This document shows, one piece after another, positions 40,084 to 61,209 of a stretch of DNA of 64,000 nucleotides. Positions within the stretch are counted from its first letter, which is position 1, and the number at the start of each line of letters is the position of its first letter. The stretch spans positions 64,001 to 128,000 of the IMG/VR virus record IMGVR_UViG_3300017917_003388; one strand, given 5' to 3'. Origin of the DNA: a virus. The notes beneath the pieces were generated by a model that saw nothing but the letters and a program-made list of their open reading frames with translations, was not told where the DNA came from and did no database searches. Made by a program: the position numbers and the translations under genes.

Positions 40084-41115
40084 TTATTTTTTTCCAAATG
40101 CTAATTCACGCATACGAGCGAAAGCATCTTCATTAATAATTGTTTTAGTTGAATTTGTATTTGTTATTACTTTTGAAGCTATACCAGTTATAGATTCTTT
40201 AATTTGTGATTTATTAGGTTTTATACTCACGCTTAAAGTCTCATAAATTAATTTAGCTTCATCTTTAGTTTTAGCTTTATCAAATGCTTCTAGCACTTTA
40301 ACTTTTTGAGATTCAGTTAATGAAGTGTTGCGGAAAATTTTATTAGTATAAAGCAATTTAGCATTTAACAAATTAGTATTATTTATTTCCTCATTAAGAG
40401 TTTTAATTAATTCTAATGCTTCTTTTAATTCATCAGATTTATCTTCTTTTTTAGCTTCAGAAAGATCTTCATCTGTTGATTCAGATTCTTCTAATTCTTT
40501 TAAAAGTTCATCTAATGATATTTCTTCATCTAATTCTTCTTCGTCTATATTAACTTCAGACATCATATCTTCATCTTCAATTTCAATATCTTCAGATTCT
40601 TCTTCGTCTTCAGTTTCTTCAGCGTCCATATTAGGTACTTCATCTTCCATTCCTTCATGTCCACCTTCCAATTCACCAGATGCTATCATATCTTTGATTA
40701 CACTTTCAATAAAACCAGTTAAATCTTCACTAGACATATCTTCGATTGAAATTTCTTCTTCATCTTCGTCTTTGTCTTTGTCTTCATCTTTATCTTCTTT
40801 CTTATCTTCATCTTTCGATTTAGCTTCAGAAAGATCTTCATCTGTTGATTCAGATTCTTCTAATTCTTTTAAAAGTTCATCTAATGATATTTCTTCATCT
40901 AATTCCATATCATCTACTTCATTTGTTGAATCTTCATTTACTTTTTCTTTAATTTCATCTTCTTGCTCCATTTCATTTATTTTAGCAGAAAATTTTTCTT
41001 TTAAGAATGGGGTAAATGATTCTTCAAGTGATGCTTTAGCATTTGCAATAGCCATTTCTTTGATAGCTTTCGCATCAGCAATTGCTTCCATAAGCAATTC
41101 TCTATTTTTACTCAT
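40084..41115 (-). CDS. prohead core scaffolding protein (gp22-like)
   Basis: highly acidic with many LxE sites; NLLNAKLLYTNK; between protease and capsid genes. Confidence 0.85.
   Translation of the reverse strand: MSKNRELLMEAIADAKAIKEMAIANAKASLEESFTPFLKEKFSAKINEMEQEDEIKEKVNEDSTNEVDDMELDEEISLDELLKELEESESTDEDLSEAKSKDEDKKEDKDEDKDKDEDEEEISIEDMSSEDLTGFIESVIKDMIASGELEGGHEGMEDEVPNMDAEETEDEEESEDIEIEDEDMMSEVNIDEEELDEEISLDELLKELEESESTDEDLSEAKKEDKSDELKEALELIKTLNEEINNTNLLNAKLLYTNKIFRNTSLTESQKVKVLEAFDKAKTKDEAKLIYETLSVSIKPNKSQIKESITGIASKVITNTNSTKTIINEDAFARMRELAFGKK
40450..40905. repeat. 87-nt perfect direct repeat in the scaffold gene (40450-40536 and 40819-40905)
   Basis: both copies encode ELDEEISLDELLKELEESESTDEDLSEAK with identical DNA. 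Confidence 0.9.
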
Positions 41116-41260
41116 TGTTCCTTAATTTTTTAATTGGAAATACGCTTAATATATAATAGGGAGAAGCGTAATAAATATATTAATTACCTTTGATACCTCA
41201 TATTGATTGGGTATAATCAAATATAAATATATTAAAAACTATTAAAGTCGCATTTAAAAC

Positions 41261-41295
41261 AAAAAAAGGCATTCCTCTTTATAGAGAAATGCCTT
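41261..41295 (-). terminator. intrinsic terminator after the prohead protease gene
   Basis: AAGGCAUUUCUCU...AGAGGAAUGCCUU stem plus U-run. Confidence 0.7.
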
Positions 41296-41332
41296 CTTTA
41301 ATATATAATAATATTTTTAACTATTCTATATT

Positions 41333-41929
41333 CTAAAATATAGGACAAGTACCATTAGAACATAATATTTCAGTAATTATGTTGTTTACACTATGATATG
41401 GATTAATATTTGAATATGATTTATTTTCATTAATAGGCATCATATATGAACCTGGGTTTGATGGATTTGAAACAAAATCAAAACATACTAATTCAAAATC
41501 ATCTTGTACTTCTAAAAGTTCACCCATTTGTTTTAATGAACCTAATCCCCTAGATGACACACCTAGTTTTATTTTATTTTCAATTAATGCTTTCAAAATA
41601 TTTCCAGATGGAGTAGGTAGTATTTCTATAATACCCATTATTTTATCTCCATCCCACCATATTTTAGTTATATTATGAGATACATTTTTGAGATTTATAA
41701 TTTGAGAATCTGGATGGTCTAGTTCACCTATAGCTCTATTTTCGGCTACTAAATCTAAATATTTTTTTATTTCTCTTTCCCATAATTCTCTTTTATAATA
41801 TCGACCATTCCCATTTTTTACTTCACATGTAGCTAGAATACCTTCTACTAAAGGATTCCCACGCATACTTTTATTTTCAGTAATTAAAAATGAAGATGGG
41901 GTAAAAGTTTCTACAAGTAATGATTTCAT
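41333..41929 (-). CDS. prohead protease (gp21-like)
   Basis: NGNGRYY, GELDHP, VSH, GVSSRGLGS, FDFVSNPS. Confidence 0.93.
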   Translation of the reverse strand: MKSLLVETFTPSSFLITENKSMRGNPLVEGILATCEVKNGNGRYYKRELWEREIKKYLDLVAENRAIGELDHPDSQIINLKNVSHNITKIWWDGDKIMGIIEILPTPSGNILKALIENKIKLGVSSRGLGSLKQMGELLEVQDDFELVCFDFVSNPSNPGSYMMPINENKSYSNINPYHSVNNIITEILCSNGTCPIF

Positions 41930-41932
41930 TTT

Positions 41933-43567
41933 TTAATATTTTCCTTTTTCATTAATTACTTCAATTATAACTTCTTGAATTAATTTACGTAATTTATGTT
42001 CTGTTACTAAAGACTCAAAATCTCCAGATAATAATATCCAATATCCAGGTCTATTTTTAGATGGTTTTATATTTAAATTAACAAAATGCATCTTAACATT
42101 TGGGTCTAATTTAGGATTAATTTCTTTTTTTATTTTTCCTCTAATTAATGATGATAATTTATCAGATAATACATCAGCTAATGGGGTTTGTTTTCTTAAT
42201 TTATCTCTAGTTGTTCTTCCTCTACCTAGTTCATCTAATGCATTTTTAACATAATCTGAAACATACATATATATTTGATCTGGGTTTTTGGATATTAATT
42301 TAATACTATTTGGTTGTACTTTATTTATAGCATCTATATTATCCTTATCTAAAAATAATGCTCTTGGTGGTTTACGTTCACCATCTCCTTTAACTGTTTT
42401 ACCTATAGATACTGGAGTTTGGTATATTGCTTCATCTAATCCAGTTTCTAGGGTTTTAATTTTGGCTTCAATTTCAGCTTTACGTTCAGGATCAGTTTCA
42501 GACATTAATTCGTCTTGAAGATCTTCAAGTTGTTGATATAAGTTTTCATTTTCATCTAATGCTTCTTTAATGATATTATGAATTAAAGAGCGAAGTTTTT
42601 GTTCATCTTTATTTTCTAAAATATTGGTATTTTCTTGTAGTCCAGTTATATTAAATAAACTCATTCGAACGGATGGTCCTTTTCTATCTCCATCAATAAC
42701 CGAATATAATACTTTCCCATCATAATAATATAAATCATTTTGATCTTCAGTATTTTTGTAAAGAGCTAGCCCTTTTTTATCTTTTTTATCAACTAGTTTT
42801 AATGATAATTTTCTTTTTTCTTTATTTTCTTGCAATTTCATTTTCTTTTCTGCTCCGGGCATAGGCATTCTTTTAACACCAGAGGCACCTTTTGGGGTTA
42901 CTTCCATTTCTTTTACTTTTGAAGGATTTGTTGTTTTAGCTTCTTTATCGCTTAATGAATCTTGAACATTAGATTTTACTTTTTCAATTTTAATATCAGC
43001 ATCTAAATCACCATAACCTGATGATTTATATTTACCTTTTGGTTCTTTAGATTTACCTAAACCAGGAGCTTCATCAGTATACCCAACACCTTTTTCACCA
43101 AACATTCCATCTTTAGTATAAAATAAAGGATCTTTAGCTAAGTTTTTAACAACCATAGCTTTAATTTCATCACCTGTTTTATCAGTATTTTTTCCATCTT
43201 TTAACTCAGCATAAAAACCTTTCATAATTTCGTTAAAGTTAACATTATCAGCGTTTTTCATGTCTGTGTTATCGTAGGCATGCGCTTGTTTATCTTTAAC
43301 TTCTTTAGATGTTTCTTTTTCTTCTGCTTTAACTTCTTCAGCTAGGATTTTTTTCCAATCATAAATGTCAAATCCTTTAGAAACAACACCACCTGTTACC
43401 TCACTAATAATTTGTTTAGATTTTAACACAGATATTGCTGTATCGAAATTTGTGTATTGATTAAAATATTCAGGAAACAACGATCTGGCTTGTTTTAGAA
43501 ATTGAGGTTTTAACTCATCATTTCCTGATTTTATATTATTATATTGTTCTTGAAGTGTATTTTTCAT
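41933..43567 (-). CDS. putative internal head protein
   Basis: head-module position; many LxE sites; two KLRxLIxxxIxE helices. Confidence 0.55.
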   Translation of the reverse strand: MKNTLQEQYNNIKSGNDELKPQFLKQARSLFPEYFNQYTNFDTAISVLKSKQIISEVTGGVVSKGFDIYDWKKILAEEVKAEEKETSKEVKDKQAHAYDNTDMKNADNVNFNEIMKGFYAELKDGKNTDKTGDEIKAMVVKNLAKDPLFYTKDGMFGEKGVGYTDEAPGLGKSKEPKGKYKSSGYGDLDADIKIEKVKSNVQDSLSDKEAKTTNPSKVKEMEVTPKGASGVKRMPMPGAEKKMKLQENKEKRKLSLKLVDKKDKKGLALYKNTEDQNDLYYYDGKVLYSVIDGDRKGPSVRMSLFNITGLQENTNILENKDEQKLRSLIHNIIKEALDENENLYQQLEDLQDELMSETDPERKAEIEAKIKTLETGLDEAIYQTPVSIGKTVKGDGERKPPRALFLDKDNIDAINKVQPNSIKLISKNPDQIYMYVSDYVKNALDELGRGRTTRDKLRKQTPLADVLSDKLSSLIRGKIKKEINPKLDPNVKMHFVNLNIKPSKNRPGYWILLSGDFESLVTEHKLRKLIQEVIIEVINEKGKY

Positions 43568-44238
43568 TTTTTATTGAATAGAGTTATTAAATCATCTATA
43601 TAGTCAGATGCCAAATCTGTACTGTATTGTATTTTAAAATCTGGATTATTTTTGTAATAATCCATAGTTTCGGTTTTGGCTTTTTTTAATAAAGGTATTA
43701 ATATATTTAGTTTATCTTCTATTTTATCAAAATCTGTGATTTTATCTTCAATAAATTGTTTCAATTGTGGATCACCAATATTGATTGAATTTAAATATGA
43801 ATCTGATGATTCATCTTCATATATATGTTTATATTTAGTTGATAATGGGGTATCATATTGTTCACCACTCCCTGGTGTAAAACTCCCACCATTTCCTGTT
43901 GAACTTAACTCATTTAATTTATTAAAAATTAGTTCTTTTATTAAAATTTCCTTTAATGCTAATTGTGCTAATTTATATTCTTTAGGATAATTGTTTCTAA
44001 GATGTGATCTAAATTGATTATAGACATAATTAAATCCTGAATTTATTTCTTTGAATTTTGGATCTTTTTTAACATCATCAAATGTCATAAATTCTTTAAA
44101 TTCTTTACCTAATAAATTAAATTGTTGTAATAATTTGTTATAATTGGCCTTATATGTAATATCCCATGAAACTGTTCCTGTTTCTGGATTAGTTTCTCTT
44201 TCAGTCTTACTAAATCCGCTTGGTTGATTATTTTCCAT
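43564..44238 (-). CDS. hypothetical head-module protein
   Basis: intact ORF between portal and protease; LNE followed by a Gly-rich segment ending in Y.TP. Confidence 0.55.
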   Translation of the reverse strand: MENNQPSGFSKTERETNPETGTVSWDITYKANYNKLLQQFNLLGKEFKEFMTFDDVKKDPKFKEINSGFNYVYNQFRSHLRNNYPKEYKLAQLALKEILIKELIFNKLNELSSTGNGGSFTPGSGEQYDTPLSTKYKHIYEDESSDSYLNSINIGDPQLKQFIEDKITDFDKIEDKLNILIPLLKKAKTETMDYYKNNPDFKIQYSTDLASDYIDDLITLFNKK

Positions 44239-45094
44239 TGGTTTTTTTAAGTTCAGAAATTAAATCACAATATTGAAGTAAATTAACCATATGTTCGTTA
44301 GTTACTTTATCTTGTTTATTTAAAGGAATTAATAATTTTGATATCTCATCTATTTTAATCTTAGTTGTAATATCATTTGTATTTTCATTTAAATTCAAAA
44401 TATTAGTTTTTATTTCATCTATTTTAGTATTATAAAAATTTTTTAACTTAGGAGTATTATCTATACTATATATAAACTCTTGTAATATCTGTTTTTGATC
44501 ATCCCCAAAATTTGAATATTTTTTATTAAATTTTTCTAATATAAGTTTATAAGATAATATTCTTATATCTTTATCATAATTTATAAATTCATCTATTATA
44601 GAATTGTTTTTATTCTCTTCTAATAATGATTTTGAAGATGAAGTTAAATGTTCTAAAATAGATATTTTATTATTAATAATTTGTTCTAATGATAAATCAT
44701 TACCTTTAAATGTAGATTCTATCAATGTGTATATAGAAGCTTGAATCTTATAATTAGGTAATTTAGTTTTAAAAAATACATCTAAATCATAATGTTCTTT
44801 TATTTCTTTAATTAAATTATATTTTTGTCTTTTTAAAACTGAGCGATTTAAGTTTTTAGCATTTTCTAAAACTGTACTAATTATGATCTCAGCTTTACCT
44901 TCAGTTAAATTAGTATGTTTTAATAAACTATCGTATAACTTATATTCGCGACCTAACTCTGTTTTACCAAAATATTTTTTTAAAATATCAACAGCTTCGG
45001 AATTTTTCCCAGATAAAGTATCAGTAGTTATTTGTCTAACTAATAATTCAAATAAGATACCTGTATTTTTTAGTTTAGAATGTTTTATTAACAT
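44228..45094 (-). CDS. conserved-looking hypothetical head-module protein
   Basis: IKHSKLKNTGILFELLVRQIT; own ATATTTATA motif; follows the portal gene. Confidence 0.6.
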   Translation of the reverse strand: MLIKHSKLKNTGILFELLVRQITTDTLSGKNSEAVDILKKYFGKTELGREYKLYDSLLKHTNLTEGKAEIIISTVLENAKNLNRSVLKRQKYNLIKEIKEHYDLDVFFKTKLPNYKIQASIYTLIESTFKGNDLSLEQIINNKISILEHLTSSSKSLLEENKNNSIIDEFINYDKDIRILSYKLILEKFNKKYSNFGDDQKQILQEFIYSIDNTPKLKNFYNTKIDEIKTNILNLNENTNDITTKIKIDEISKLLIPLNKQDKVTNEHMVNLLQYCDLISELKKTNGK

Positions 45095-45131
45095 TTAATT
45101 TATTTTTTAATTATAAATATATTAAAAATTA

Positions 45132-46988
45132 TTAATTTCGCAATTGAGATTCATCTAATAATGATTCTTTAGATTTATCAATATCAAATACCAATTTTTT
45201 TTTAATTTCATTGATGAAATCTTTATTTTTTAAATAAGTATTTTCAGATATGCTAACCATATTTGGTTGATCATCTATCTTCATAGATTTCACACCCAAT
45301 CTATCTTTTCCAAATGCATTATCTTGCTTATTTATGTTGGTTACTTTCTCTATTGGTCTTCCTAATTCTATACCATCTTCATATCCTACAGGTATATTAT
45401 TAGGATTAGACATTAATCTTCCCTTACCATATAGTGCTGCTAAATCATGTGGAGTACCATATGATTTTCCTGTTTCTAAAGGATCATTTCCTTCTTCTGT
45501 AACTTGAGCTAATCTGAATTTACGTTTTGCATCTTGAAGTATTAGATCTCTATATTCATCGAATTGATCTTCACTAAAATGAAATATATGATGATATATC
45601 CAATCAGTTGGTAATAATTGAGATTCTATAATTGATTTGGCTAAGTCTACTTTTTCTTTCATTAAAGCAACACGTTCTTGATCATATATGATAGATGGAG
45701 TTGTTAATGATAAATCAAAATTAGTTAATGTTTCTCCTCTATATCCCTGAGAATATAAATGTACTAATGCTATTTTATATAATTCTGAAAGAACTATTCT
45801 TTGTATGCGATCTATAGTACGAGCAAATCTAATATCTTCAGCAGCCAGTGTTGCTTTTCCTGTTAAGTCTTTTTCATAACCCATAAATGCTTTGGGTACT
45901 TTAAGAGCTGCAAATAATTTTTCTCTTAAATATATTACATCTTCTATTCCATTATATTCTAATCCTTTAGTAGTATCAATTCTTGTAGTTGAATCATTTC
46001 CTCTAACTGGAATATAGAAGTCTTCTAACATGTTTTGCATGTTGTATTTTAAATTATATTCTCCTGTTCTTTCATCTCTAAATGGAGTTTTCTTCATCGT
46101 AGAAATTGTTTTTTGCATGAATGCTTCAACTTCATTAGGAGCAATATTACCTACATTTATATAAAAAATTCGTTTTTCAGGAGCACGTGATATTCTATGT
46201 AATAACATAGCATCTTCCATTAATACATATTGTTTATATAATTTACGAGCTGGTTCTATATATGAACGCCCATATGGTAAATAATTAACATCAGTTAATA
46301 ATCTAAAATGAGCCATCTCATAATTTTCAAAATATATTCCTATAGAATCAGAATTTAAAGTATTAGATACAGGATACATCCCTCCAGATGATGAATTACC
46401 ATCAGGTGAGTACATGAATCTTACAGATGATGGGTTATCTTTATCATATCCTTCTTGACGATATATATGATATGCTGTATATGGTAATACATTATATACT
46501 CCTAATTTATCTGCTATTTCTAGTTTAAGGAAAAAATCACCATATTTATTCATTTGTCTAATCCATGACCATAAATTAAATTCAATATTTAATACATCAT
46601 AGAATAAATTATATAATATCTTTTGTATATCTTCATCTGAAGAACGAATTTGGAGTACTTCACCCATTTCATTTTTCAATGTACATTCATCTGATATAAT
46701 ATCTAAAGCTGAAGCAATTATTGCATCAGTATCCATCATATCATAATCTGAATATAAGAATGGTCTTAAATATTGGTAATTTATATTAAGTTGTTGACCC
46801 CATAATGAAGTAGCATTAGAATAAACTCCATTATATTTATTCATTATTGAGTTAGTTTCTAATCCACTTTGTTGTATAGTATTTATATCTATAATTTTAA
46901 TTTGGTTACCATTTTCATTTCTGATCATAATATCAGTAGAAAATAACCTTCTTAGTCTACCAAATAAATTATTATTTTCATTTGCCAT
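45132..46988 (-). CDS. portal protein (gp20-like)
   Basis: ALDIISDE, LMEDAMLLHRISRAPEKRIFYI.VGN, EDFYIPVRG, ALKVPK, EDIRFARTI. Confidence 0.95.
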   Translation of the reverse strand: MANENNNLFGRLRRLFSTDIMIRNENGNQIKIIDINTIQQSGLETNSIMNKYNGVYSNATSLWGQQLNINYQYLRPFLYSDYDMMDTDAIIASALDIISDECTLKNEMGEVLQIRSSDEDIQKILYNLFYDVLNIEFNLWSWIRQMNKYGDFFLKLEIADKLGVYNVLPYTAYHIYRQEGYDKDNPSSVRFMYSPDGNSSSGGMYPVSNTLNSDSIGIYFENYEMAHFRLLTDVNYLPYGRSYIEPARKLYKQYVLMEDAMLLHRISRAPEKRIFYINVGNIAPNEVEAFMQKTISTMKKTPFRDERTGEYNLKYNMQNMLEDFYIPVRGNDSTTRIDTTKGLEYNGIEDVIYLREKLFAALKVPKAFMGYEKDLTGKATLAAEDIRFARTIDRIQRIVLSELYKIALVHLYSQGYRGETLTNFDLSLTTPSIIYDQERVALMKEKVDLAKSIIESQLLPTDWIYHHIFHFSEDQFDEYRDLILQDAKRKFRLAQVTEEGNDPLETGKSYGTPHDLAALYGKGRLMSNPNNIPVGYEDGIELGRPIEKVTNINKQDNAFGKDRLGVKSMKIDDQPNMVSISENTYLKNKDFINEIKKKLVFDIDKSKESLLDESQLRN

Positions 46989-47009: not shown

Positions 47010-48593
47010 TTAAAATAACCAACGAATATCTTCACTTTCTCCATTTTGGGTTTTTATACTATACGGATTTACATTATATCCAGAATAATAAGCCCCCAAA
47101 TGTTGAGTATTTTGAGAATACGGATTACGCATTATATTATTAAGTGCCATTCTTGACATTTCTAAATTTTGAGCTTTATTTTTCAATGATGTATCTCTTA
47201 AATACATTGCTATACTATAAGCCATCACTAAGTCATCATTATAACCAGATTGTGCTTCAGCTCTACCATTTTTCCATATAAACACTTTCATCTCTTCTAA
47301 TAATCGTTTAGAACGAATTATAACACTTCTTTCTCCTATATATTCTATTCCTTTATTTACAACCAAAGGTCTAGTTTTTAAAGATGTATTAAACCCAGGT
47401 ATTGTATCTGAATATTCATTATATCTGTGAAGATATGAATCAAGGATTATGTTCTCACCTTTAGATGAAAAAAATAAATTTCTATATCCTCTTTCTAATA
47501 TAGCATCTAAAGTAGACCACCCAACATTTGAATTTTCAACTACTAATAAAGCTTCATTATATTCAGTTGCAATACCACATAAGAAATACCCGTAATCTTT
47601 TGGGGGAAGTTGACCTTTATATTCTGCTACTTGGGCATTAGTTTCAATATCAAAAATATGAAATGCAGAATAATCTTTTCCATCTCCTCTAGCTACGTCT
47701 GCTACTAAAATATAACTACGAGTGTAATCTGGGGGTTCCCATATCCATAAATTACCATCTAATCCTCTTCGTTCTATAGGATCACTAACATATGTAGTTT
47801 TATAATAATTCAAATATTCTTCATAGTAAACTACATCCCCGGATGTATTAAAGTCACAATCACATTCTTGGGCTGCTAATCTAGGATCACCTAATAATTC
47901 ATCTTGTCGTTTTCTCCAATTTTCATCTCGTTCGGGATGAACATACCATGGTAGTTTAATTGGTAAAAAATCATTAGTATTTTCTTCAGCTTTAACCCAT
48001 GTTTGATGAAACCAATTTCCGGTACCATATGGAGTAGATAATACTATAGCTCCTCCTCCTGTAGCCAATGTTTGTTGAGCTGATGCCCATATTTTATCTA
48101 TATCTTCAATAAATGCCGCTTCATCAATTAATAATAAAGATACAGCTTCAGATCGTCCAGCATCACTAGCTGCTGATACTGCTTTTATTTGAGAACCATT
48201 TGTTAATCTAATTGTTAATTTATTATTTTCTTCAGCAGCTACTTTCAACCAGGAAGGTAAATTTTCATACATAAACTTTACCTTAGTAACCATATTTTTA
48301 GCAGTATCCTGTTTAGTAGCAATACATAATATGTTTTTATCTTTATGAAATGTCATTAACCATAAAGAATATCCCGCAGCTAAAGTAGATATACCTAACT
48401 GACGGGATTTTAGTACTATAGAATATGGATTATCTTTCCATAAATTAAGTACTTTAGATTGAAATGGGTATAAATTAAATATTACACGACCTCTTTGAGG
48501 ATGTTGAATATTACAATATTTTCTCATAAAATGTGCAGGATCTTTAGCACATTTTATATACTCTTCTTTTATAATTTGTTTTATATCATACAT
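47010..48593 (-). CDS. terminase large subunit (gp17-like)
   Basis: LKSRQLGIST, LLIDEAAF, STPYG, ADVARGDGKDYS, NDDLVMA. Confidence 0.95.
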   Translation of the reverse strand: MYDIKQIIKEEYIKCAKDPAHFMRKYCNIQHPQRGRVIFNLYPFQSKVLNLWKDNPYSIVLKSRQLGISTLAAGYSLWLMTFHKDKNILCIATKQDTAKNMVTKVKFMYENLPSWLKVAAEENNKLTIRLTNGSQIKAVSAASDAGRSEAVSLLLIDEAAFIEDIDKIWASAQQTLATGGGAIVLSTPYGTGNWFHQTWVKAEENTNDFLPIKLPWYVHPERDENWRKRQDELLGDPRLAAQECDCDFNTSGDVVYYEEYLNYYKTTYVSDPIERRGLDGNLWIWEPPDYTRSYILVADVARGDGKDYSAFHIFDIETNAQVAEYKGQLPPKDYGYFLCGIATEYNEALLVVENSNVGWSTLDAILERGYRNLFFSSKGENIILDSYLHRYNEYSDTIPGFNTSLKTRPLVVNKGIEYIGERSVIIRSKRLLEEMKVFIWKNGRAEAQSGYNDDLVMAYSIAMYLRDTSLKNKAQNLEMSRMALNNIMRNPYSQNTQHLGAYYSGYNVNPYSIKTQNGESEDIRWLF

Positions 48594-49305: not shown

Positions 49306-49309
49306 ATTT

Positions 49310-50158
49310 TTAATCTATTATATCTGAAACTAAAGCATTTAGGTTAACTCCTTTAGCTTTAAATAATTTTTTTACATCATCTCGTTTGATTAATGTTTTT
49401 AACACTGACATGTCACTGGATGATGATCTTTTATTTTTAGGTAAAGCAGCAATTTTAGCTACTTTAGTTTCTATACCTGTTTTAATACGGTTATATCTAT
49501 CTTCATCTTCAGGAGATAATTCTTTTGCATATCCTTTACCTCCTGTGATTTTAGATGCAGCTTTTTCTGATGATTTAATATCGCTAGTTGATGGATCTTT
49601 TTCATCAGTTTCATCTTTATCATCAGCTGATGTATCCCATTCATCTTTTTCAGCAGCTATATCCCATTCATCTTTTTCAGTATCGTCAGATTTAGATTCA
49701 GGTTCAGATGTTGGAGTAGTATCTTTAATTTTAGTAAATGCAAATGCTCCCACTTTAATAAATTCATTAACAGCAGGATTAATAGCAGGTTGACTAGATT
49801 TACCCACAGCTAAAGCTAAATCTAATTGTGATATTCCATCTTCTCCTGCTTTTTCAACTACATCTAACATGTTTCCTTTCCATGTTCCACCATATAGTTT
49901 TTTTACTAATTCTACCTTAGAAGGATCACCAAGTTTTATTTTATTTGGAGTACGAGCCATTTCTTCTAATTCATTTTTTTCTTCTAAAGATTGAATATTA
50001 TTTTTAGACATTTCTGCTTTTTTTTTCTGCAATGATATTATTTTTTTATCAATAGCATTTTTTTGAGCATCAAATGCTGCTTTATCTGCATTCAAATCTT
50101 CAGATAATTCATTAATTATTTCTTCTTTAATATAATTATATAATTCTTTACGTTTCAT
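49310..50158 (-). CDS. putative packaged winged-helix DNA-binding protein
   Basis: N-terminal tag, LEE-MAR, GISQLDLALAVGKSSQPAINPAVNEF HTH; paralog of 51714. Confidence 0.55.
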   Translation of the reverse strand: MKRKELYNYIKEEIINELSEDLNADKAAFDAQKNAIDKKIISLQKKKAEMSKNNIQSLEEKNELEEMARTPNKIKLGDPSKVELVKKLYGGTWKGNMLDVVEKAGEDGISQLDLALAVGKSSQPAINPAVNEFIKVGAFAFTKIKDTTPTSEPESKSDDTEKDEWDIAAEKDEWDTSADDKDETDEKDPSTSDIKSSEKAASKITGGKGYAKELSPEDEDRYNRIKTGIETKVAKIAALPKNKRSSSSDMSVLKTLIKRDDVKKLFKAKGVNLNALVSDIID

Positions 50159-51650: not shown

Positions 51651-51688
51651 TAAATATAAAAAAGAAGGCTTGGAAATCCAAGCCTTTT
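51651..51688 (-). terminator. terminator hairpin with embedded CTTG-N20-TATATTTA promoter
   Basis: AAGGCUUGGA-UU-UCCAAGCCUU inverted repeat plus U-run. Confidence 0.7.
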
Positions 51689-51713: not shown

Positions 51714-52730
51714 TCAATTTAATTGTCGAATTATATTTCTATAAGCAGATTCCATTTTGTTATATAATGGGGTAAAATCTTCATCATTAAGTCCTGTACT
51801 ATCTTGAATATCAAAATCATAAAATCCAGATAATGATGATCCACTAGATGTTGGTGATACCATATTTGCATTTGCATCTATATCATTTACATAATCATAA
51901 AATCCATCTTGAAAATTCACACATATTAATTTAATGATTTCTTTCAATTCATCTGAGGATATTTTTTTCTTATAAAAATCAACCCAAGCTTGTTGGATTT
52001 TAGGATTAGTCATTAAATCTACTTCTCTCGACCATCTAGATAAATTCTCATTTTCCGTTATTAGTTTTTTTTTTAAATCACTTTCGGTAATTAAACCAGC
52101 TCGTTTTTGCATACGAAGAAATGATTCATTAACAACAACAGTTTCAGCAACATCTGAAATATCTTCATCATCATCCATTTCTATATCAGCATTTTTCATA
52201 GCTGACTTCACACCACCTGATAGTGATGATTGACCAGGTTTGCGTCCACGTTTTAATAATCCTTTAGCTCTTAATTTAAGTTTTTGTATAAATTCTGGAC
52301 CTAATATTGAGATTTCTTCTTCACTAGGTTCATAATCTGGATTTTGTTCTAGTTTAGAATTTATATCTAAGGCCAGTTTTGTTTTATCAGATACTGGTCT
52401 ACCTTTAACTCCTGTGGATTGAGGTTTTTCTTGTTTAGGAGTAGATAAATCACCTTTAACAAATATACCAGCATCCATAAAATCGCGAACTTTAGGATTT
52501 ATAGCTTGCATACCTGATTTTCCTAATATTCTAGCTAGTTCAGGTTGAGGAATACCAACATCCCCTGCTTTTTCAACAGCGTCTATCATATCTCCATACC
52601 ATGTTCCCGCATATAATTCTTTAGCAGCTGATGCTTTTTCTGGGTCTCCAAGTTTTATGTTAGTAGAAATACGAGCCATTTCATCAAGTTCGGATTCTAC
52701 CATTTCTCTAATAAGTTGTCTTAATTTCAT
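51714..52730 (-). CDS. putative packaged winged-helix/AT-hook DNA-binding protein
   Basis: MKLRQLIRE tag, LDE-MAR, GIPQPELARILGKSGMQAINPKV HTH, KGRP and KRGRKP, internal RMQKRAGL. Confidence 0.6.
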   Translation of the reverse strand: MKLRQLIREMVESELDEMARISTNIKLGDPEKASAAKELYAGTWYGDMIDAVEKAGDVGIPQPELARILGKSGMQAINPKVRDFMDAGIFVKGDLSTPKQEKPQSTGVKGRPVSDKTKLALDINSKLEQNPDYEPSEEEISILGPEFIQKLKLRAKGLLKRGRKPGQSSLSGGVKSAMKNADIEMDDDEDISDVAETVVVNESFLRMQKRAGLITESDLKKKLITENENLSRWSREVDLMTNPKIQQAWVDFYKKKISSDELKEIIKLICVNFQDGFYDYVNDIDANANMVSPTSSGSSLSGFYDFDIQDSTGLNDEDFTPLYNKMESAYRNIIRQLN

Positions 52731-52777
52731 TGTTTAATAAATTATTTTATTATAAATATATTAAATTATTCGAGGAA

Positions 52778-54117: not shown

Positions 54118-54336
54118 CTAAAAGTTATTTACTGAATCCTGAAGTATAGTGATAATTTCTTCACGATTAACTAATCCACCTTCACCATCTATTATAATCA
54201 TATCTTCCATACCTTCATCTTTGATATGACGCATTAAATCATAATCAGACATTAAATTAGAATTATTATTTTTGTTTTTTTCTAATTGAGATTCAGATTT
54301 AGGAAATATTTTATCGATTTTTTTATTATTTTTCAT
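54118..54336 (-). CDS. hypothetical protein
   Basis: short ORF overlapping the end of the SLOG gene. Confidence 0.5.
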   Translation of the reverse strand: MKNNKKIDKIFPKSESQLEKNKNNNSNLMSDYDLMRHIKDEGMEDMIIIDGEGGLVNREEIITILQDSVNNF

Positions 54337-54688
54337 TTATATAATTAATTATTTTATATGGTTTATTTAATTGTTCACATAAAGAAAGAGCATGTTGTGT
54401 TCCCTTAGAAATACCATCCCAAAATGCAATAGCACAATCACAATTATTTATTATATCTTTATTTCGAATAATTCCTGCTTTTTTCCCATATTGTTCCCAA
54501 TCTGGAAGAAATATTAGTGTTTTAATGTTATTTTTAAGTGCCCATCTTTCTCCTAAAGAATCAGCACCTTTTGCAGCACCTGATATAACTAAAGATATTT
54601 TAGATTTATATGGTTCTAAAGATTTCTCCAATAAATCATAATTTGTAAAACTTCTACTACCAATTATTGCTAATTTTAATTTACCCAT
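54326..54688 (-). CDS. YspA-like SLOG family protein
   Basis: IIGSRSF, ISGAAKGAD, PDWEQYGKKAGIIRN, AFWDG.SKGT. Confidence 0.88.
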   Translation of the reverse strand: MGKLKLAIIGSRSFTNYDLLEKSLEPYKSKISLVISGAAKGADSLGERWALKNNIKTLIFLPDWEQYGKKAGIIRNKDIINNCDCAIAFWDGISKGTQHALSLCEQLNKPYKIINYINEK

Positions 54689-55146
54689 TTTGGTTTGTTA
54701 TTTAGCTTTTTCCAATTTAATCCTTTAATTTTTACTTTATCATTAATATAAAAGTTTTTATAAGCCTCTATAGTATTTTGTTTCTTAAACTCTTCAGGCA
54801 TACATTGTGGAGGTTCTATAAACTCACTATTAGGCAAATTAGGTTCATTGTCTTTACACCACAATAATATTTGTTTAGTAGCATGTACTTTACCATAACG
54901 TTTTTCAAATTCATTACATATTTCTAATCCATGTTTTACAAGCCATCTGTAATGGTGTATAGATTGTCTAGTCCAAATAGTAGATGGGTGATTTTTGTGA
55001 GCACGTTTATATGGTGCTTCATTTCCTGTTTCCCAATGTGCTGTACAACACATTTGTGCACTTTCAATTTGCATCTTTCTAATATGATTATCTGCTAACT
55101 CACGAGCTGCTATAATCGGATCTTCATTAATATAAAATATATTCAT
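54676..55146 (-). CDS. pyrimidine-dimer DNA glycosylase/DenV-like protein
   Basis: MNIF...DP...A...D.H..KM..E.AQM, HKNHPSTIW, PPQCMP. Confidence 0.75.
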   Translation of the reverse strand: MNIFYINEDPIIAARELADNHIRKMQIESAQMCCTAHWETGNEAPYKRAHKNHPSTIWTRQSIHHYRWLVKHGLEICNEFEKRYGKVHATKQILLWCKDNEPNLPNSEFIEPPQCMPEEFKKQNTIEAYKNFYINDKVKIKGLNWKKLNNKPKWVN

Positions 55147-55169
55147 AGATTTTATTTAGCAATAAAAAT

Positions 55170-55192
55170 AAAAAAGACCTCTATGGAGGCCT
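55170..55192 (-). terminator. intrinsic terminator
   Basis: AGGCCUC-CAUA-GAGGUCU plus U-run. Confidence 0.6.
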
Positions 55193-55217
55193 AATTTTTT
55201 ATTTAAAGATAAAAAGC

Positions 55218-55505
55218 TTATAATCCAGCTAATTTCTGCATACGTGTAAATTCTTCATTTATCTGTTTTTTATTCATAGTTAATAAATTAATAACGTCAT
55301 CATTACTAATTATTCTACCATTTATTTTTTCCAAATTTTTAGTATGTTTGTTAAATACAGATGAATGATGATTTATTTTACAAAATATAGAGTATCCATT
55401 TGGATTAAATCTTTCAAAATAATAAGTATTAGGATCACCTTTGAATTTCAATGTAGCTCCTTTACCTATATTGTATTTGTAAATTGTTTTATTAAACGGA
55501 TGCAT
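55218..55505 (-). CDS. small protein ending in INEEFTRMQKLAGL
   Basis: C-terminal motif shared with the scaffold and with 55515/51714. Confidence 0.6.
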   Translation of the reverse strand: MHPFNKTIYKYNIGKGATLKFKGDPNTYYFERFNPNGYSIFCKINHHSSVFNKHTKNLEKINGRIISNDDVINLLTMNKKQINEEFTRMQKLAGL

Positions 55506-55514
55506 TTATCTAAT

Positions 55515-55958
55515 TTATAATAAACCAGCTCGTTTTTGCATACGAACAAATGATTCATTAATTTGCTCTTTAGTCTTTTTAGTTTCGGTTTCATTTATAT
55601 CTATATCAGAAGCTTCTGGAAGGATTTCATCTATTGTTTCTTGGGTTTCTTCTTTTTTAGATTCTGGTTTTGATGATTTTTTTGATTGCATTTTTTTCAA
55701 TTGCTTATCATATTTATCAGCGCTTTTTTTAAGCAATTTAATTTCAGATTCTAATTCTTTCATTTTTCCTTTATCAAGCATATCATGATATGCTTCATCA
55801 ATCCCTTCCATATTCATTTTTCGTTCACGTAATTCAATAGCTTCTTGAGTTTTAGCTATTTTAGCTTCTAAAGCAGCAATACTTCCTGCTTCATCAATTT
55901 CACGAATATATTCTTGAATTGATTCTTTAATAAGTTGTTTTAATTCAGTTGATTTCAT
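55515..55958 (-). CDS. coiled-coil putative internal head protein with N-terminal tag and RMQKRAGLL tail
   Basis: MKSTELKQLIKESI...INESFVRMQKRAGLL. Confidence 0.65.
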   Translation of the reverse strand: MKSTELKQLIKESIQEYIREIDEAGSIAALEAKIAKTQEAIELRERKMNMEGIDEAYHDMLDKGKMKELESEIKLLKKSADKYDKQLKKMQSKKSSKPESKKEETQETIDEILPEASDIDINETETKKTKEQINESFVRMQKRAGLL

Positions 55959-56218
55959 TCTTCTATTTTTATTTTTAATGTATCTATTCCTTTTATGACT
56001 CTATGCCATATTTTTTCGGATATAAATATGTTAGTTCCCTTTTTAAGTTCAATAGGTAATTCATTATCTTTTTGAAAATACCATCCATTACCTTCTAATA
56101 CAGTTATTTTACGAGATTTAAGATCTCGATGCCACATTAATTCAATAGGATTTACATTTTCATCAAATTCACGAATAATATATCTATCTGTAATTTCTAT
56201 GTCTGTATATGGTTTCAT
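55955..56218 (-). CDS. cupin-fold protein
   Basis: ELMWHRD...ITVLEG...WHRVIKG. Confidence 0.65.
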   Translation of the reverse strand: MKPYTDIEITDRYIIREFDENVNPIELMWHRDLKSRKITVLEGNGWYFQKDNELPIELKKGTNIFISEKIWHRVIKGIDTLKIKIEE

Positions 56219-56774
56219 TTAATGATGATTTTAAAGCATTGACTGTATCAGTATACAATCTTTTATTTTCAGAAGCCCAATTTGGAAAACGATCTTCATA
56301 TTTTTCATAAAAATTTTTGAATTTTTGAAGTTTAATTGGTCCTTCATATTCAAATATTTCATTTTGATCTAGAGTAAAATTGATTTTATCTTTATTTGAT
56401 CTAATTAATTTAGAAAAAATATCCTTATATATAGGATCATCAGACATAGAATTAACAAATTTCAAATAATCTATTAATCCCATTCTTTCTTTTCGTAGAT
56501 CATTCATTACTAAAGTATGCTCTTCTCTATTTAAAGAATTTAAATCTGGAGCAAATGAATAAGGAACATAGTTAAAAAATTTGATTCCTAGTTTTTCTAA
56601 TTCATTATCTTCTTTCAAATTCTTCCAAATATCACCCTGACGACATCTAACAATTTGACCTGATCTATATGCTGATGACTTTTTGTTTTTGCGTCTAGCA
56701 ATACGAAGACAACGATCTGCTTTTTTCTTTTCTTCTAAAAGAATATTTTTTAATAATCCAATTAAACTAATCAT
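56184..56774 (-). CDS. hypothetical protein with a basic Cys-containing N-terminal module
   Basis: LLKNILLE followed by ADRCLRIARRK...SAYRSGQIVRCRQG. Confidence 0.55.
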   Translation of the reverse strand: MISLIGLLKNILLEEKKKADRCLRIARRKNKKSSAYRSGQIVRCRQGDIWKNLKEDNELEKLGIKFFNYVPYSFAPDLNSLNREEHTLVMNDLRKERMGLIDYLKFVNSMSDDPIYKDIFSKLIRSNKDKINFTLDQNEIFEYEGPIKLQKFKNFYEKYEDRFPNWASENKRLYTDTVNALKSSLNETIYRHRNYR

Positions 56775-57148
56775 ATTCCAATATTAATTAATTGGGGGTT
56801 ATCAACTTTGAATTTAATTATACCTTTGATTGAATTAATCGAGTTTACAATTTTATTTAAAGTTTCAATTGTAAATTGTTCTCCATCTTTAATATAAGGA
56901 TAAGGATCAATTTTTACAGTTAATATATCATATTCACGTCCTTTTTTAGGTAAACGAGGAGTATATTCTCTAGTATCTACGGTTGTTATACCTGGGATTG
57001 ACCTTATATCAGATAGAATTTGAGATTGGGTTTTTTTATCAGTATCGGTAATTAAATGTCCTTCCAATTTATATAATTTAGAAGCAGAATCTTCACGTAT
57101 TAAACGTAATTCTTCTTGAATAAGTTGTTTAAGGTCTGAAATTTTCAT
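56771..57148 (-). CDS. hypothetical protein with N-terminal tag
   Basis: MKISDLKQLIQEEL; ILSDIRSIPGITTV. Confidence 0.65.
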   Translation of the reverse strand: MKISDLKQLIQEELRLIREDSASKLYKLEGHLITDTDKKTQSQILSDIRSIPGITTVDTREYTPRLPKKGREYDILTVKIDPYPYIKDGEQFTIETLNKIVNSINSIKGIIKFKVDNPQLINIGI

Positions 57149-57163
57149 ATTACCACATTGCTA

Positions 57164-57793
57164 TTATACATATTGCGCTTTATATTGCTTATTCTTAATA
57201 GTTTGAGCTTTTCCAATAAGTTGACATCTTACTGTTTCTGGATTTATTTGGAGATCAATAGCTAGGTCATAGTAATTAGAATAAGTTTTAATATATTCTC
57301 CAGATATTGTATATAAAGCTACTTGTTTTCCATTTCCCTTATTGGGACTTATCCTACCCTTATGGGCTTCTGAGACTCCTGGTTTTAAGATTCCTTTCCC
57401 TCCTCCTTTAGGATTTGGGATTCCTTTTCTTTCTTTACTCCATTTATGTTTTTGTTCAAATGAATGTTTAGCAACACCTGTTAATTTTTCACTAATTATT
57501 TTTTTGGTTTCTTCTTTATGAAGATTATTTCCTTTAGCATCATTAGTTAAATTATAAAATAATGGATTTGTTGAAGCATGAAAGTATTCTAACCATTGAG
57601 ATTCTATATCACGGGCATCTCCTTCACCTTGCCAAAGTATATCTCTTGTAAAATTGTTTTTACCGTATTTTTTTAGAGCATCTTTTATTACTTTACCACT
57701 ACCATAATAATTTTCGTCAATTTGAGATTTTCGAGAGGAACCAATATACTTTTTTCCATTAATTTTATTGGTTATAATATAAACATATGTCAT
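57164..57793 (-). CDS. Seg-like GIY-YIG homing endonuclease
   Basis: YVYIITNKINGKKYIG...YYGSG...KYGKNNF..FYN; likely start ATG at 57793 after the promoter motif. Confidence 0.88.
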   Translation of the reverse strand: MTYVYIITNKINGKKYIGSSRKSQIDENYYGSGKVIKDALKKYGKNNFTRDILWQGEGDARDIESQWLEYFHASTNPLFYNLTNDAKGNNLHKEETKKIISEKLTGVAKHSFEQKHKWSKERKGIPNPKGGGKGILKPGVSEAHKGRISPNKGNGKQVALYTISGEYIKTYSNYYDLAIDLQINPETVRCQLIGKAQTIKNKQYKAQYV

Positions 57794-57830
57794 ATTTTGT
57801 TTTATTATAAATATTGGTAGGGCCGTCCCT

Positions 57831-58511
57831 TTACCAAAAACCACTATAAGAACTTTTTAATCCTAAAAGTTTGGAAAAGCGAGGAAGTCTACATGACCAA
57901 TATCGCGCACTAGTTTTAGATTCTCCAGTACCACATCTATGTCGTTTAGCAAAAGCTCGCCTAGCTTTAGGATCATTAATTTTTACAGATAAACCAGTTG
58001 TATCTCCAAAACTAACTTTTTTAATTTTTTTAGTTTTTGGATCACGAACATATACATAAAATTTTTTAGAACCACCACGTTTTGGTTTTCCAATTGGTGG
58101 GTTTTTCTTTTTATCTTTAGATTCTTCTAATTCCTCTTCCTCCAACATAGGTAAGTCTAAAGGTACTTTTTTACCTTCATACATTCCATACTCACCTAAA
58201 TTAGTTTCGAATAATATTTCTTTATCTAGATCATTTACATAAATAGCATTACGAGAATATAAATAACGAGCTTCAGCCCATAAATCTAAAAATGCATCTG
58301 AGCCGTATCTAAATGTATTTTCTGTAAGAGCTACTTTGTTATCAATATGATATTTCATATTTTCAGACATTATAATTCTTGATGATATATTTTCATTAAG
58401 AATTGGACCAGGATTTCCTACATTTTCACATGTATTACATCCACAACTACATTTATGTTGTGTAGTTTGTTTTATTAATATTTCTCTTATTATTTTTCTT
58501 ATATTTTCCAT
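57831..58511 (-). CDS. hypothetical protein with a very basic C-terminal domain
   Basis: LEE followed by KPKRGGSKKFYVYV...KVSFGD...AFAKRHRC...ARYWSC. Confidence 0.7.
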   Translation of the reverse strand: MENIRKIIREILIKQTTQHKCSCGCNTCENVGNPGPILNENISSRIIMSENMKYHIDNKVALTENTFRYGSDAFLDLWAEARYLYSRNAIYVNDLDKEILFETNLGEYGMYEGKKVPLDLPMLEEEELEESKDKKKNPPIGKPKRGGSKKFYVYVRDPKTKKIKKVSFGDTTGLSVKINDPKARRAFAKRHRCGTGESKTSARYWSCRLPRFSKLLGLKSSYSGFW

Positions 58512-58522
58512 GAATATAAATA

Positions 58523-59521
58523 TTATTTAATTTTGATGAATTTATCTTTTTTCAATTCATATACATTGGAAGATTTATGAGCAGTAGATTTAGTCATAAC
58601 TATCGCTTCGTTATTTTTGATATTAAACATATTTCTGTCTGCTCTATAACCAGCAGTTAAATATGGGTAATACATATTTTTTGGGATAGATGGAGGAATA
58701 TAACTATGTTCAGCAGTTAATTTATATATGTTTTTATATATGTTGTGTAAATTTATATTACCTTGTAATATTATGTTTATATTATCTGGCCCATGATTTT
58801 CATTACCATATTCTGAACCATATATTAACTTATGAATTAAATTTATATTTTTTAATTTATAAATAAATCGAGTTTGGTTTGGAACCCCATCTAAACTATT
58901 TAAATATATAAAATCATTTAATCTATCATTAAAGTATAATACTTCAAGATCATTGTTATATCTAGTGTATCCACTCCATCTAATAAAATCATCGGGGGAA
59001 GGACCATGGATTCCTGCTTTTTTATGGGAAATAAATATAACAGGTTCATTTGATGTGTTTATTATATTAAAATCAGATTTTGGAGTACCAGATTGGGATA
59101 TAGCTTTATGTACATATTTGTATTTTTTATTTTTTATTAATACATCTATATACCCCCCATGTTTATTAATTAATTCATATAATTTTAAATTTAATAAATT
59201 CAAATTATAATCTTCAACTACTGTTCCTGAACCTGTACCTTTTCCACCAAAAGATTGATCTTTAGTTAGATCTGAAATGGAATATTGAGTTTGAATGTCT
59301 GTAAAAAATGGGAATTTATTAATAGGATGAAACATATGTTTACATGTTATTATTTTTTTATTTAGAAAAAGATCTAAATATTCATCTCTATCAAATTTTA
59401 ATATTTTATTCTCTCCATTAACTAAATTAAATGGAATCTCATTTATTATTTTATTCGATAAAATATCAAAACGATATCCTCCCCTTTTACTTAAATCATA
59501 AATGGTTAAAGGTTTAAACAT
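58523..59521 (-). CDS. putative PD-(D/E)xK restriction-endonuclease-like nuclease
   Basis: VEDYNL helix followed by TPKSDF...FISHKK pattern. Confidence 0.5.
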   Translation of the reverse strand: MFKPLTIYDLSKRGGYRFDILSNKIINEIPFNLVNGENKILKFDRDEYLDLFLNKKIITCKHMFHPINKFPFFTDIQTQYSISDLTKDQSFGGKGTGSGTVVEDYNLNLLNLKLYELINKHGGYIDVLIKNKKYKYVHKAISQSGTPKSDFNIINTSNEPVIFISHKKAGIHGPSPDDFIRWSGYTRYNNDLEVLYFNDRLNDFIYLNSLDGVPNQTRFIYKLKNINLIHKLIYGSEYGNENHGPDNINIILQGNINLHNIYKNIYKLTAEHSYIPPSIPKNMYYPYLTAGYRADRNMFNIKNNEAIVMTKSTAHKSSNVYELKKDKFIKIK

Positions 59522-59534
59522 TTTTATAACTAAT

Positions 59535-60065
59535 TTATTCGCTAATTTCTTCTTCTGATCCTAAATCATCTTTAGGTAATTCATTTTGATTAATATCTTC
59601 AGGAGAAGAAACAGGTTGTTCTTGTGATTGTGATGATGGTGTTATTTTTTCTTTATTGACTTCGGATTTGGCTCCATATGATAAAATTCGAGCAATAGAT
59701 TCAATACAATTTTGCTCTTCACTTAAATTTAATAAGTAATATTTTTTACCCTCAACTTTACCAATCCATGTTCTATCAGTGTATATTAAATAAAATGGTT
59801 GTTCATTAGCTAATACTATTCTAAAAGTAGTAGGTCTAGGAGCTACCCATTCTATATCTTTTATAAATAATTCATATTGTTCTGTTAACAATAATATAAT
59901 AACATCTTTAAGAGTAGGAAATTTGACTAATACTGGAAAGCGAGTTGTGTCTAAAGATATAGAAGTAGATGTATCTAAGTCTATATTTTTAGTTTTATTA
60001 TCAATAACATTGTTATATATTGATTTTATTTTTTCTTTTAATTCTCGTTTATTCATATTAATCAA
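59535..60065 (-). CDS. hypothetical protein
   Basis: IEWVAPRPTTFRI..N..F.L motif; acidic tail. Confidence 0.65.
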   Translation of the reverse strand: MINMNKRELKEKIKSIYNNVIDNKTKNIDLDTSTSISLDTTRFPVLVKFPTLKDVIILLLTEQYELFIKDIEWVAPRPTTFRIVLANEQPFYLIYTDRTWIGKVEGKKYYLLNLSEEQNCIESIARILSYGAKSEVNKEKITPSSQSQEQPVSSPEDINQNELPKDDLGSEEEISE

Positions 60066-60567
60066 GTTTTATATATGGTGATACTATACTTTCATAATCA
60101 CTCATATTTAAAATATCTTTGGATTTAGATAATTGTATGATATTTTCTAACACAAAATGTAAATCAAGATCATTATGTGCATCTTCTCTAGAATATTCCA
60201 TTATTCTTATTAATAAAGGAATAGATAAACTAATATATTCTTTGAATTGATTTTTTGATTCTTCATTTTCTTTTTTAAATATATCTAAAGAAGGTGATGA
60301 TATAATCGATCTTGATTTAATATAATCAACTGAATTTATATCATCATCTACTTCTTCTGATTTTTTTATGGGAGATGATAAAACTGTTTTTATAGTTTCT
60401 TTAATTTTTAGTTTATCTTGCTTATCTACCATATTTTTAGCTAAAGTAATAGCTCTCCCCATCATTACCTTTTCAGCATCAGCACCATATTTTGAAACAA
60501 AATCTCTTTTATTTTGTTTATATTGATTATATAACTGATTCTTAATTGATAATTCTCTGGGGTTCAT
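60058..60567 (-). CDS. hypothetical protein
   Basis: FVSKYG.DAEKVMMGRA and IPLLIRIMEYSREDA..DLDLH modules. Confidence 0.65.
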   Translation of the reverse strand: MNPRELSIKNQLYNQYKQNKRDFVSKYGADAEKVMMGRAITLAKNMVDKQDKLKIKETIKTVLSSPIKKSEEVDDDINSVDYIKSRSIISSPSLDIFKKENEESKNQFKEYISLSIPLLIRIMEYSREDAHNDLDLHFVLENIIQLSKSKDILNMSDYESIVSPYIKLD

Positions 60568-60584
60568 TTGGGGAGTTTTAAAAA

Positions 60585-60758
60585 TTATTTACTTTTACTT
60601 TCAGCTACTGATGCTTTGTTATAAGCTGAAATTAGTTTTTTTAATTCACTTAAAGCTTTACGAGTTTTAGCTTTATTAGTTTTAAATTTACCTTCATGGT
60701 TTTCTTTTGCGGTTTCATATAACCCACTAATTTGTTCAAATAGTTCTTGTGTGTTCAT
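60585..60758 (-). CDS. Hc1/histone-H1-like small basic protein (not in ORF track)
   Basis: MNTQELFEQISGLYETAKENHEGKFKTNKAKTRKALSELKKLISAYNKASVAESKSK*; resembles the KAA..RARKA..ELKKL...YRK.S Hc1 pattern. Confidence 0.65.
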   Translation of the reverse strand: MNTQELFEQISGLYETAKENHEGKFKTNKAKTRKALSELKKLISAYNKASVAESKSK

Positions 60759-60789
60759 AGATATTTAGTTTTTATTTGTTTATTATTTG

Positions 60790-61209
60790 TTATTCATTTA
60801 TGTTTTGTTGTTGTCCTACAACTTGTGTTCTAACAAGCATTGTGATGGTATTACCAATTTGGTTTATTAATTTTTCATCTCCTAATTGTTGAGCATTTGC
60901 CATAGCCTTATTTAGAGAATCTTGAATTGCTTTTATATTTGGGTTTATATCTACTTCAGATGGAGTATCATCTTGAGATACATCTTGGTTATCTACACTG
61001 TCATCAGTATTAGTAATGTCTTCAATATCTATATCTTCTTGAGGAGCTACATCTTTTTTTTTCTTTTTAGATTCACCTAAAGACTTATGAATTAAACCTT
61101 TAATTGTATCTTTAAGATTATTAGATTCATTTAATGTATCATAATGTTTTATTGCAGGAATAGTTTCTCCAAAAGCTAATTTCTGCATATGTTCAAATTG
61201 TTTCATCAT
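60790..61209 (-). CDS. putative internal head protein with N-terminal HMQKLAFG motif
   Basis: MMKQFEHMQKLAFG, LNE/LGE sites, own ATATTTAT motif. Confidence 0.6.
   Translation of the reverse strand: MMKQFEHMQKLAFGETIPAIKHYDTLNESNNLKDTIKGLIHKSLGESKKKKKDVAPQEDIDIEDITNTDDSVDNQDVSQDDTPSEVDINPNIKAIQDSLNKAMANAQQLGDEKLINQIGNTITMLVRTQVVGQQQNINE

Follow-up and report, generated by a model that had tools for sequence, protein, structure and literature searches.

The DNA analysed here is a 64,000-nucleotide stretch of a viral genome (bases 64001-128000 of the 174.7-kb IMG/VR record IMGVR_UViG_3300017917_003388; hereafter the window), which carries the head module of a T4-like phage. We found that the short helix at the C-terminus of the head scaffolding protein is shared by four other proteins of the window and by a large and varied set of proteins in related phages. 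From the sequences, we propose with a probability of roughly 0.6 that this helix is a capsid-targeting tag, a copy of the scaffold tail that the head protease removes, as happens to the capsid-targeting sequence (CTS) of T4.

Five copies of the tag are present in the window, all in frame and on the coding (minus) strand, where the original prediction had located them in the scaffold and in otherwise unrelated proteins:

40084-41115, minus strand: head scaffolding (gp22-like) protein of 343 residues, acidic and helical, between the S77 protease and Gp23 capsid genes
40087-40137, minus strand: C-terminal tail of the scaffold, IINEDAFARMRELAFGKK, read in frame and followed by the stop codon; the reference copy of the tag
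51714-52730, minus strand: 338-residue protein with a body (residues 1-198), an acidic linker, the tag (52083-52136, VNESFLRMQKRAGLITE; VVNESFLRMQKRAGLITE at residues 199-216) and a unique 122-residue extension
55218-55505, minus strand: 95-residue candidate cargo with a C-terminal tag at 55221-55262 (INEEFTRMQKLAGL, then stop), the protein ending in QINEEFTRMQKLAGL
55515-55958, minus strand: 147-residue coiled-coil protein with a C-terminal tag at 55518-55562 (INESFVRMQKRAGLL, then stop), the protein ending in QINESFVRMQKRAGLL, and with a second shared peptide (the LKQLIKE leader, described below) at its N-terminus
60790-61209, minus strand: 139-residue protein tagged at its N-terminus (61165-61200, LAFG subtype, QFEHMQKLAFGE), the protein starting with MMKQFEHMQKLAFGE

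The expression [RH]M[QR][KE][LR]A[GF] matched five times in the six-frame translation, compared with about 0.0003 matches expected from composition; 200 shuffles yielded no match. The copies in 51714-52730 and 55515-55958 have a 41-nucleotide stretch of DNA in common with a single mismatch, as had been noticed, and the remaining three diverge at synonymous sites. A sixth motif-like site (LTERMKQLAGQEG, G000 5256-5273), outside the window and inside a larger open reading frame, lacks the flanking consensus and was set aside as probably due to chance.

The tag is the scaffold's own C-terminal helix, as originally suggested. The scaffold was identified by its position, composition and fold, and its 343 residues had no match among gp22 profiles. 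In an AlphaFold2 model built with 30 homologues the protein is helical; a linker of about 22 residues (304-325) is disordered, and the short helix that follows at the end (329-340) coincides with the tag. In such a model, a tail carried on a disordered linker has the usual form of a tethered docking helix. Scaffolds of related phages were located solely through the neighbouring capsid gene, and the sample is therefore independent of the motif. In this sample the motif ended the scaffold in 77 of 77 relatives and then in 169 of 169 with distinct capsid sequences, with the consensus PI[VIM]E-[SVN]-[ND]-x-[FV]-x-R-[MWF]-[QKR]-x-[LI]-A-G-[IL]-x(0-3)-stop; most of them have the PI[VIM]E element four residues further upstream than the (I/V)NE site. 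The residue at the [MWF] position defines three tail classes, M, W and F, represented by 70, 70 and 29 of the 169 scaffolds. The closest cultured relative, Flavobacterium phage vB_FspM_immuto (Immutovirus), has a scaffold ending in ...SRWQKLAGIIK, and that of the more distant Microcystis phage Mel-JY01 ends in ...ERMKKLAGIVK.

How widely is the tag used? We ran a degenerate DNA pattern for E-x-F-x-RMQK-x-AG, for which about two chance matches are expected, on IMG/VR and obtained at least 119 matching viral stretches. Among the matches listed, most loci that reach head or packaging genes encode close homologues of the terminase, portal, protease and capsid protein of this phage. The full tag has the consensus [IL]-[NS]-E-x-F-x-[RKH]-[MWF]-Q-K-[LI]-A-G-[ILV]-[IL], and a profile built from the listed matches recovered at least 133 distinct tagged proteins, 87 with an N-terminal tag (typically MKKQILSEEFxRMQKLAGIITE...), 32 with a C-terminal and 14 with an internal one. 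With the tag masked, these proteins fall into at least 71 unrelated clusters (BLAST E < 1e-5). One carrier, a 914-residue protein of a related contig (L098 2362-5106, minus strand), has the tag at both ends and matches no Pfam family; its homologues in L031 and L094 have the N-terminal copy only. Together with repeated fusions at the tag, this use of either end or both by at least 71 unrelated families bears out the idea of a modular, portable element. Whole genomes hold one to five copies, without exception on the coding strand. Reversed-pattern DNA controls gave no match, the reversed peptide pattern gave none compared with 83 for the forward pattern, and 596 Gb of prokaryote genomes gave 21 matches in random contexts, near the chance expectation. 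In the sequences searched, the tag is confined to a clade of phages whose scaffold ends in it, and immuto is the sole cultured phage with the tag on a cargo protein. The string MQKLAG was not found in the literature searched.

The carriers of the window show how the tag is joined to its cargo. The copy in 51714-52730 had been described as lying inside the protein; it does, but homologues place it differently. When the family was gathered by homology of the body alone, 40 of 46 members had the tag near the C-terminus, and most tagged homologues stop one to three residues past it, typically in ...MQKLAG-IIK-stop. Those that continue switch to ...LAG-LITE, followed by at least four unrelated extensions, and residues 217-338 of the window's protein have no homologue among the related loci compared. 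The internal copy is therefore best read as a C-terminal tag with a lineage-specific extension fused behind it. In the AlphaFold2 model of this protein the tag is a helix (residues 193-210) that follows a disordered stretch (168-197). A 282-residue protein encoded at 49310-50158 is about 50% identical to the body over about 95 residues, and is an untagged paralogue of the cargo domain. For the 147-residue carrier, no homology was found to the scaffold or to a 544-residue head-module protein, and its homologues have the tag at the C-terminus or internally. Homologues of 60790-61209 begin with M..QFE[HNK]MQKLAFGK..[LIV]xE or with a canonical MQK[LI]AG tag; the conserved MQKLAFG subtype occurs in 38 related contigs.

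If the tag is removed during head maturation, protease sites should be found beside it. The gp21 protease of T4 cleaves after [LI]xE (PMC9026906), and the window encodes a protease of this type together with its presumed main substrate:

41333-41929, minus strand: prohead protease of the T4 gp21 type (Pfam Peptidase_S77, 100.6 bits, cut-off 27; PHROG 207)
38405-40057, minus strand: major capsid protein of the Gp23 family (Pfam Gp23, 256 bits)

The predicted maturation site of the capsid protein lies between LVIE and A, after residue 60, at a position that matches the T4 maturation site, and all 169 homologues keep the E of the corresponding LV[VT]E. Among the matches listed, 97 of 99 N-terminal or internal tags have an [LIVM]xE site three to nine residues past the Gly, exactly at +4 in 76 cases (background 0.022 per residue; p about 1e-105). 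The 32 C-terminal tags among them all stop one to three residues past the Gly, never with that E, and have the site upstream instead. Thus, the protease-type site always lies between tag and cargo. A removable tag predicts this placement, although part of the sequence may also belong to the binding helix. It had been claimed that an (I/V)NE site precedes the tag; protease-type sites do flank the tag on the cargo side, and (I/V)NE is just one case of the wider [LIVM]xE grammar. The carriers of the window differ in the number of such sites: the 95-residue protein has a single one, immediately before the tag, the 147-residue protein has 11 (0.075 per residue), a density like that of the scaffold, and the scaffold has 27 (0.079 per residue, four times the background of about 0.02).

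We then compared the tags at the level of DNA. Over 117 distinct DNA copies the conserved Arg is encoded by AGA (54), CGT (31) or CGC (20), Leu by TTA, CTT, TTG, CTA and rarely CTC, and Ala and Gly by all four of their codons. Selection therefore acts on the peptide and not on the DNA, with the amino acids conserved and their synonymous codons free to change. The suggestion that the tag moves as a cassette holds in part: by sequence, the 41-nucleotide identity is a recent event inside this genome, and across genomes the DNA differs freely around a conserved peptide. Recombination at the tag is, on this comparison, real as a route of spread and is not the reason for its retention.

Are the tagged genes expressed late, when heads are assembled? 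A box, ATATTTATAATAAA, matches 16 times in the window (2.6 expected); 14 of the 16 sites are on the coding strand, most of them just upstream of a start codon. The box stands 10-25 nucleotides upstream of the genes for the sheath, tube and hub, of a head gene, of phoH and of several homing-endonuclease genes (example sites: 22538-22551, 27377-27390, 29574-29587, 45107-45120, 52746-52759 and 57801-57814), and its sequence context makes it the probable late promoter of this phage group. Around the tagged genes we found:

57801-57814, minus strand: late-promoter-like box ATATTTATAATAAA, heading the unit from 57793 to 55218 that holds both C-tagged genes
55175-55192, minus strand: terminator-like hairpin after 55218-55505, closing the unit of the two C-tagged genes
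52746-52759, minus strand: late-promoter-like box before 51714-52730
51665-51686, minus strand: terminator-like hairpin after 51714-52730

Three of the four tagged genes (51714-52730, 55515-55958 and 55218-55505) thus lie between late-type promoters and terminators, and 60790-61209 has only a weak promoter match. In relatives, the box lies within 60 nucleotides of 25 of 129 tagged genes and of 132 of 1427 others (odds ratio 2.4, p = 7e-4). The late-promoter enrichment that had been anticipated is therefore present, at a modest size. Four homing-endonuclease genes of the GIY-YIG or HNH type (57164-57793, 1647-2306, 25963-26799 and 36967-38310) each lie behind a late-type box; one of these genes sits between the capsid gene and phoH, and another heads the operon of the two C-tagged genes.

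The surrounding genome is that of a T4-like phage, with a G+C content of 26% and nearly all genes on the minus strand; its head module combines a Gp23 capsid protein, a Peptidase_S77 protease and a Portal_T4 portal in the gene order of T4. Besides the scaffold, protease and capsid genes, the module comprises:

47010-48593: large terminase
45132-46988: portal (Pfam Portal_T4, 219 bits)
between the portal and prohead protease genes: three genes without annotation

A 217-nucleotide non-coding gap (41116-41332) separates the protease and scaffold genes. At this position five relatives have a small tagged gene, and Mel-JY01 has a gene for ribosomal protein bS21 (L201 3582-3809).

A second shared peptide, [LIM][RK]x[LIV][IVL][RKQ]E (MK.S.LKQLIKEE...), begins many unrelated small proteins of the clade. 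In the window this LKQLIKE-type leader is found at the N-termini of 57831-58511, 56771-57148, 55515-55958, 51714-52730 and the large terminase, and the peptide also occurs at the C-terminus of 41933-43567 and internally. In related loci 55 of 78 occurrences are N-terminal. At the end of this leader stands an [LI]xE site, and the leader is similar to two N-terminal ones of T4, the CTS and that of gp22.

How might cargo be loaded? Late in infection, a protein bearing the helix at either end would occupy the docking site of the scaffold tail in the assembling prohead and would thereby be enclosed. This site probably belongs to the Gp23-type capsid protein, the candidate docking partner, either to its propeptide or to its inner face, or possibly to another core protein. 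The S77 (gp21-type) protease would then separate the cargo from its tag by cutting at the intervening [LIVM]xE site. Carriers that resemble the scaffold, such as the 147-residue protein, would be degraded, and compact ones such as the 95-residue protein would stay in the head and might be ejected with the DNA, like the internal proteins of T4. New cargo would arise via recombination at the tag, as the 41-nucleotide identity and the fusions suggest. More tentatively, and possibly rather than probably, this would hold for a whole Bacteroidota-associated T4-like clade: its members would take into their heads proteins from an open-ended and rapidly changing repertoire (at least 71 families), each presenting a copy of the scaffold helix, at either of its ends, to the scaffold's docking site on the capsid protein, and the protease would then free the cargo.

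Other explanations of the shared helix were considered. It could bind a partner unrelated to the capsid, such as a chaperone, a membrane assembly site, a host factor or the helix itself in oligomerisation, with the scaffold and the small proteins using it independently; the tail class does not covary significantly with the capsid protein once phylogeny is controlled, and profile and structure searches found no recognisable function in the cargo, as such a role would allow. We nevertheless consider this unlikely, because the tag occurs only in phages that also have it at the end of their scaffold and is missing from cellular genomes (596 Gb of prokaryote sequence), because the position-dependent cleavage grammar and the late-type units would go unexplained, and because the near-invariant R, Q, K, A and G speak against a generic amphipathic membrane helix. 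Alternatively, the helix could be a signal (exosite) through which the S77 prohead protease recruits or processes its substrates, or it could mark proteins for degradation, with no role in the choice of what is packaged. The tag always adjoins [LIVM]xE sites and both the scaffold and the 147-residue carrier are very rich in them, but proteases of the T4 type act inside the prohead (PMC9958956), so that a substrate must still enter. Moreover, no such helix lies close to the invariant site of the capsid protein, which is the main substrate, and a terminal helix on a long flexible tether, as modelled, is the usual form of scaffold docking; we regard a pure protease signal as quite unlikely.

The two remaining explanations concern the motif as such. 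It could be a recombination handle in the DNA that marks cassette edges, with the peptide as a by-product: two copies in this genome are near-identical over 41 nucleotides, fusions occur repeatedly exactly at the tag, and T4, too, has two CTS copies with the same DNA sequence. However, codons differ freely across genomes (Arg as AGA or as CGT/CGC) with the amino acids kept, and the motif also ends an essential scaffold in every relative; we rejected this reading as highly improbable. Chance resemblance of short, low-complexity peptides, for which the shortness of the motif is the sole argument, has a negligible probability and is refuted by the counts given above (the copies in the window, the forward and reversed matches, and the related loci).

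Several results weigh against capsid loading. (i) The enrichment of the late box at tagged genes of relatives is just about two-fold. (ii) The LKQLIKE leader also starts the large terminase, so that a leader shared in this clade is not necessarily a sign of capsid loading. (iii) Cargo bodies are not depleted in [LIVM]xE sites (0.019 compared with 0.020). (iv) Searches for cargo function in PHROGs and Pfam gave nothing above curated cut-offs, with weak sub-threshold coiled-coil matches for two carriers; the model of 51714-52730 retrieved just weak winged-helix-like rows in Foldseek (E > 0.3), and the 95-residue protein yielded no lead in the ESM Atlas. (v) When tail class (M, W or F) was compared with the columns of the capsid protein in 77 and in 169 pairs, phylogeny-aware pair tests were never significant. 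(vi) Cargo tags do not track the M or W variant of their own scaffold: immuto combines a W scaffold with an M cargo, and one contig has the reverse. (vii) We looked for mass spectrometry on immuto and found none. Capsid residue 4 (I, V or L), which covaried best with tail class in the 77 pairs, was discarded since at 169 pairs it was level with clade markers. The mixed M and W combinations suggest, at the level of sequence, a docking site that tolerates both residues. Cargo tags of the LAFG type co-occur with RMRELA(FG/GL) scaffold tails in three of three genomes plus this one, a lineage-level association whose cases are not independent.

If capsid loading by the scaffold helix is correct, it would identify a physical receptor through which a T4-type head takes up cargo: a cargo tag that equals the scaffold's tethered tail points to a concrete, testable receptor, namely whatever the scaffold tail binds. 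The helix would then be a packaging tag of about 17 residues that acts in both directions and differs from the T4 CTS; provided that it functions at either end of a protein, phage engineering would gain a second such tag beside the CTS. The tag marks, from sequence alone, candidate packaged or injected proteins of a large uncultured phage clade; by analogy with T4, the tagged proteins are likely to be anti-defence or takeover factors. Immuto, a cultured carrier of the cargo tag, makes a direct test possible.

The closest functional analogue would be the CTS that T4 carries on IPII and IPIII, and also on IPI and Alt. It is a short propeptide on diverse internal proteins that brings about their entry into the core and is cut off by gp21 (PMC3012670, PMC9026906); Alt has propeptides at both ends (PMC9026906). 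According to a 2023 review, the docking partner of the CTS and the selection of prohead-core proteins are 'mysterious' and the core structure is unresolved (PMC9958956). Here, as in T4, a Gp23 capsid, an S77 protease, a gp20 portal and a gp22-like core are found with a short terminal peptide on otherwise unrelated, fast-turning-over small proteins, with few carriers per genome, and the peptide ends at an [LI]xE-type protease site. Copies within one genome can match in DNA in both systems: in the T4 record (NC_000866) the N-terminal CTS, MKTYQEFIAE (10 residues), is present twice with identical DNA (65690-65718 and 66387-66415), and here the match extends over 41 nucleotides. The doubly tagged 914-residue carrier of a related contig recalls Alt. 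In contrast to the CTS, the present tag has 15-20 residues, stands at the N-terminus, the C-terminus or both, has no sequence similarity to MKTYQEFIAE and copies the scaffold's C-terminal helix. It is the N-terminus of gp22 (MLKEQLIAE; L413, from the T4 record, 7118-7927) that the CTS resembles, and not the C-terminus (...VYAKVASRF). Judging from this resemblance, T4 cargo leaders may also copy a scaffold terminus, the opposite one.

In other systems with HK97-fold capsids, too, the C-terminal tail of the scaffold is shared with a second protein. SaPI1 CpmB shares a C-terminal capsid-binding tail with the 80alpha scaffold and so enters the procapsid, and the herpesvirus protease UL26 shares the C-terminal tail of the scaffold UL26.5, which the maturation protease cuts off at the M site. 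Those cases involve one or two dedicated partners, through nested genes or a satellite, whereas the present set is open-ended, with at least 71 cargo families tagged at their N- or C-termini, and coat binding is here a proposal. Encapsulin cargo-loading peptides are likewise short and terminal, occur on diverse cargo, dock inside an HK97-fold shell and are portable by fusion; encapsulins lack a scaffold, package no DNA and have no protease that removes the peptide. The present tag has no sequence similarity to these peptides, is flanked by cleavage sites and belongs to a phage Gp23 shell with portal, terminase and tail genes. As a copy of the scaffold's C-terminal helix, it comes nearer in principle to SaPI1 CpmB, to the herpesvirus pair of protease and scaffold and to the encapsulin peptides.

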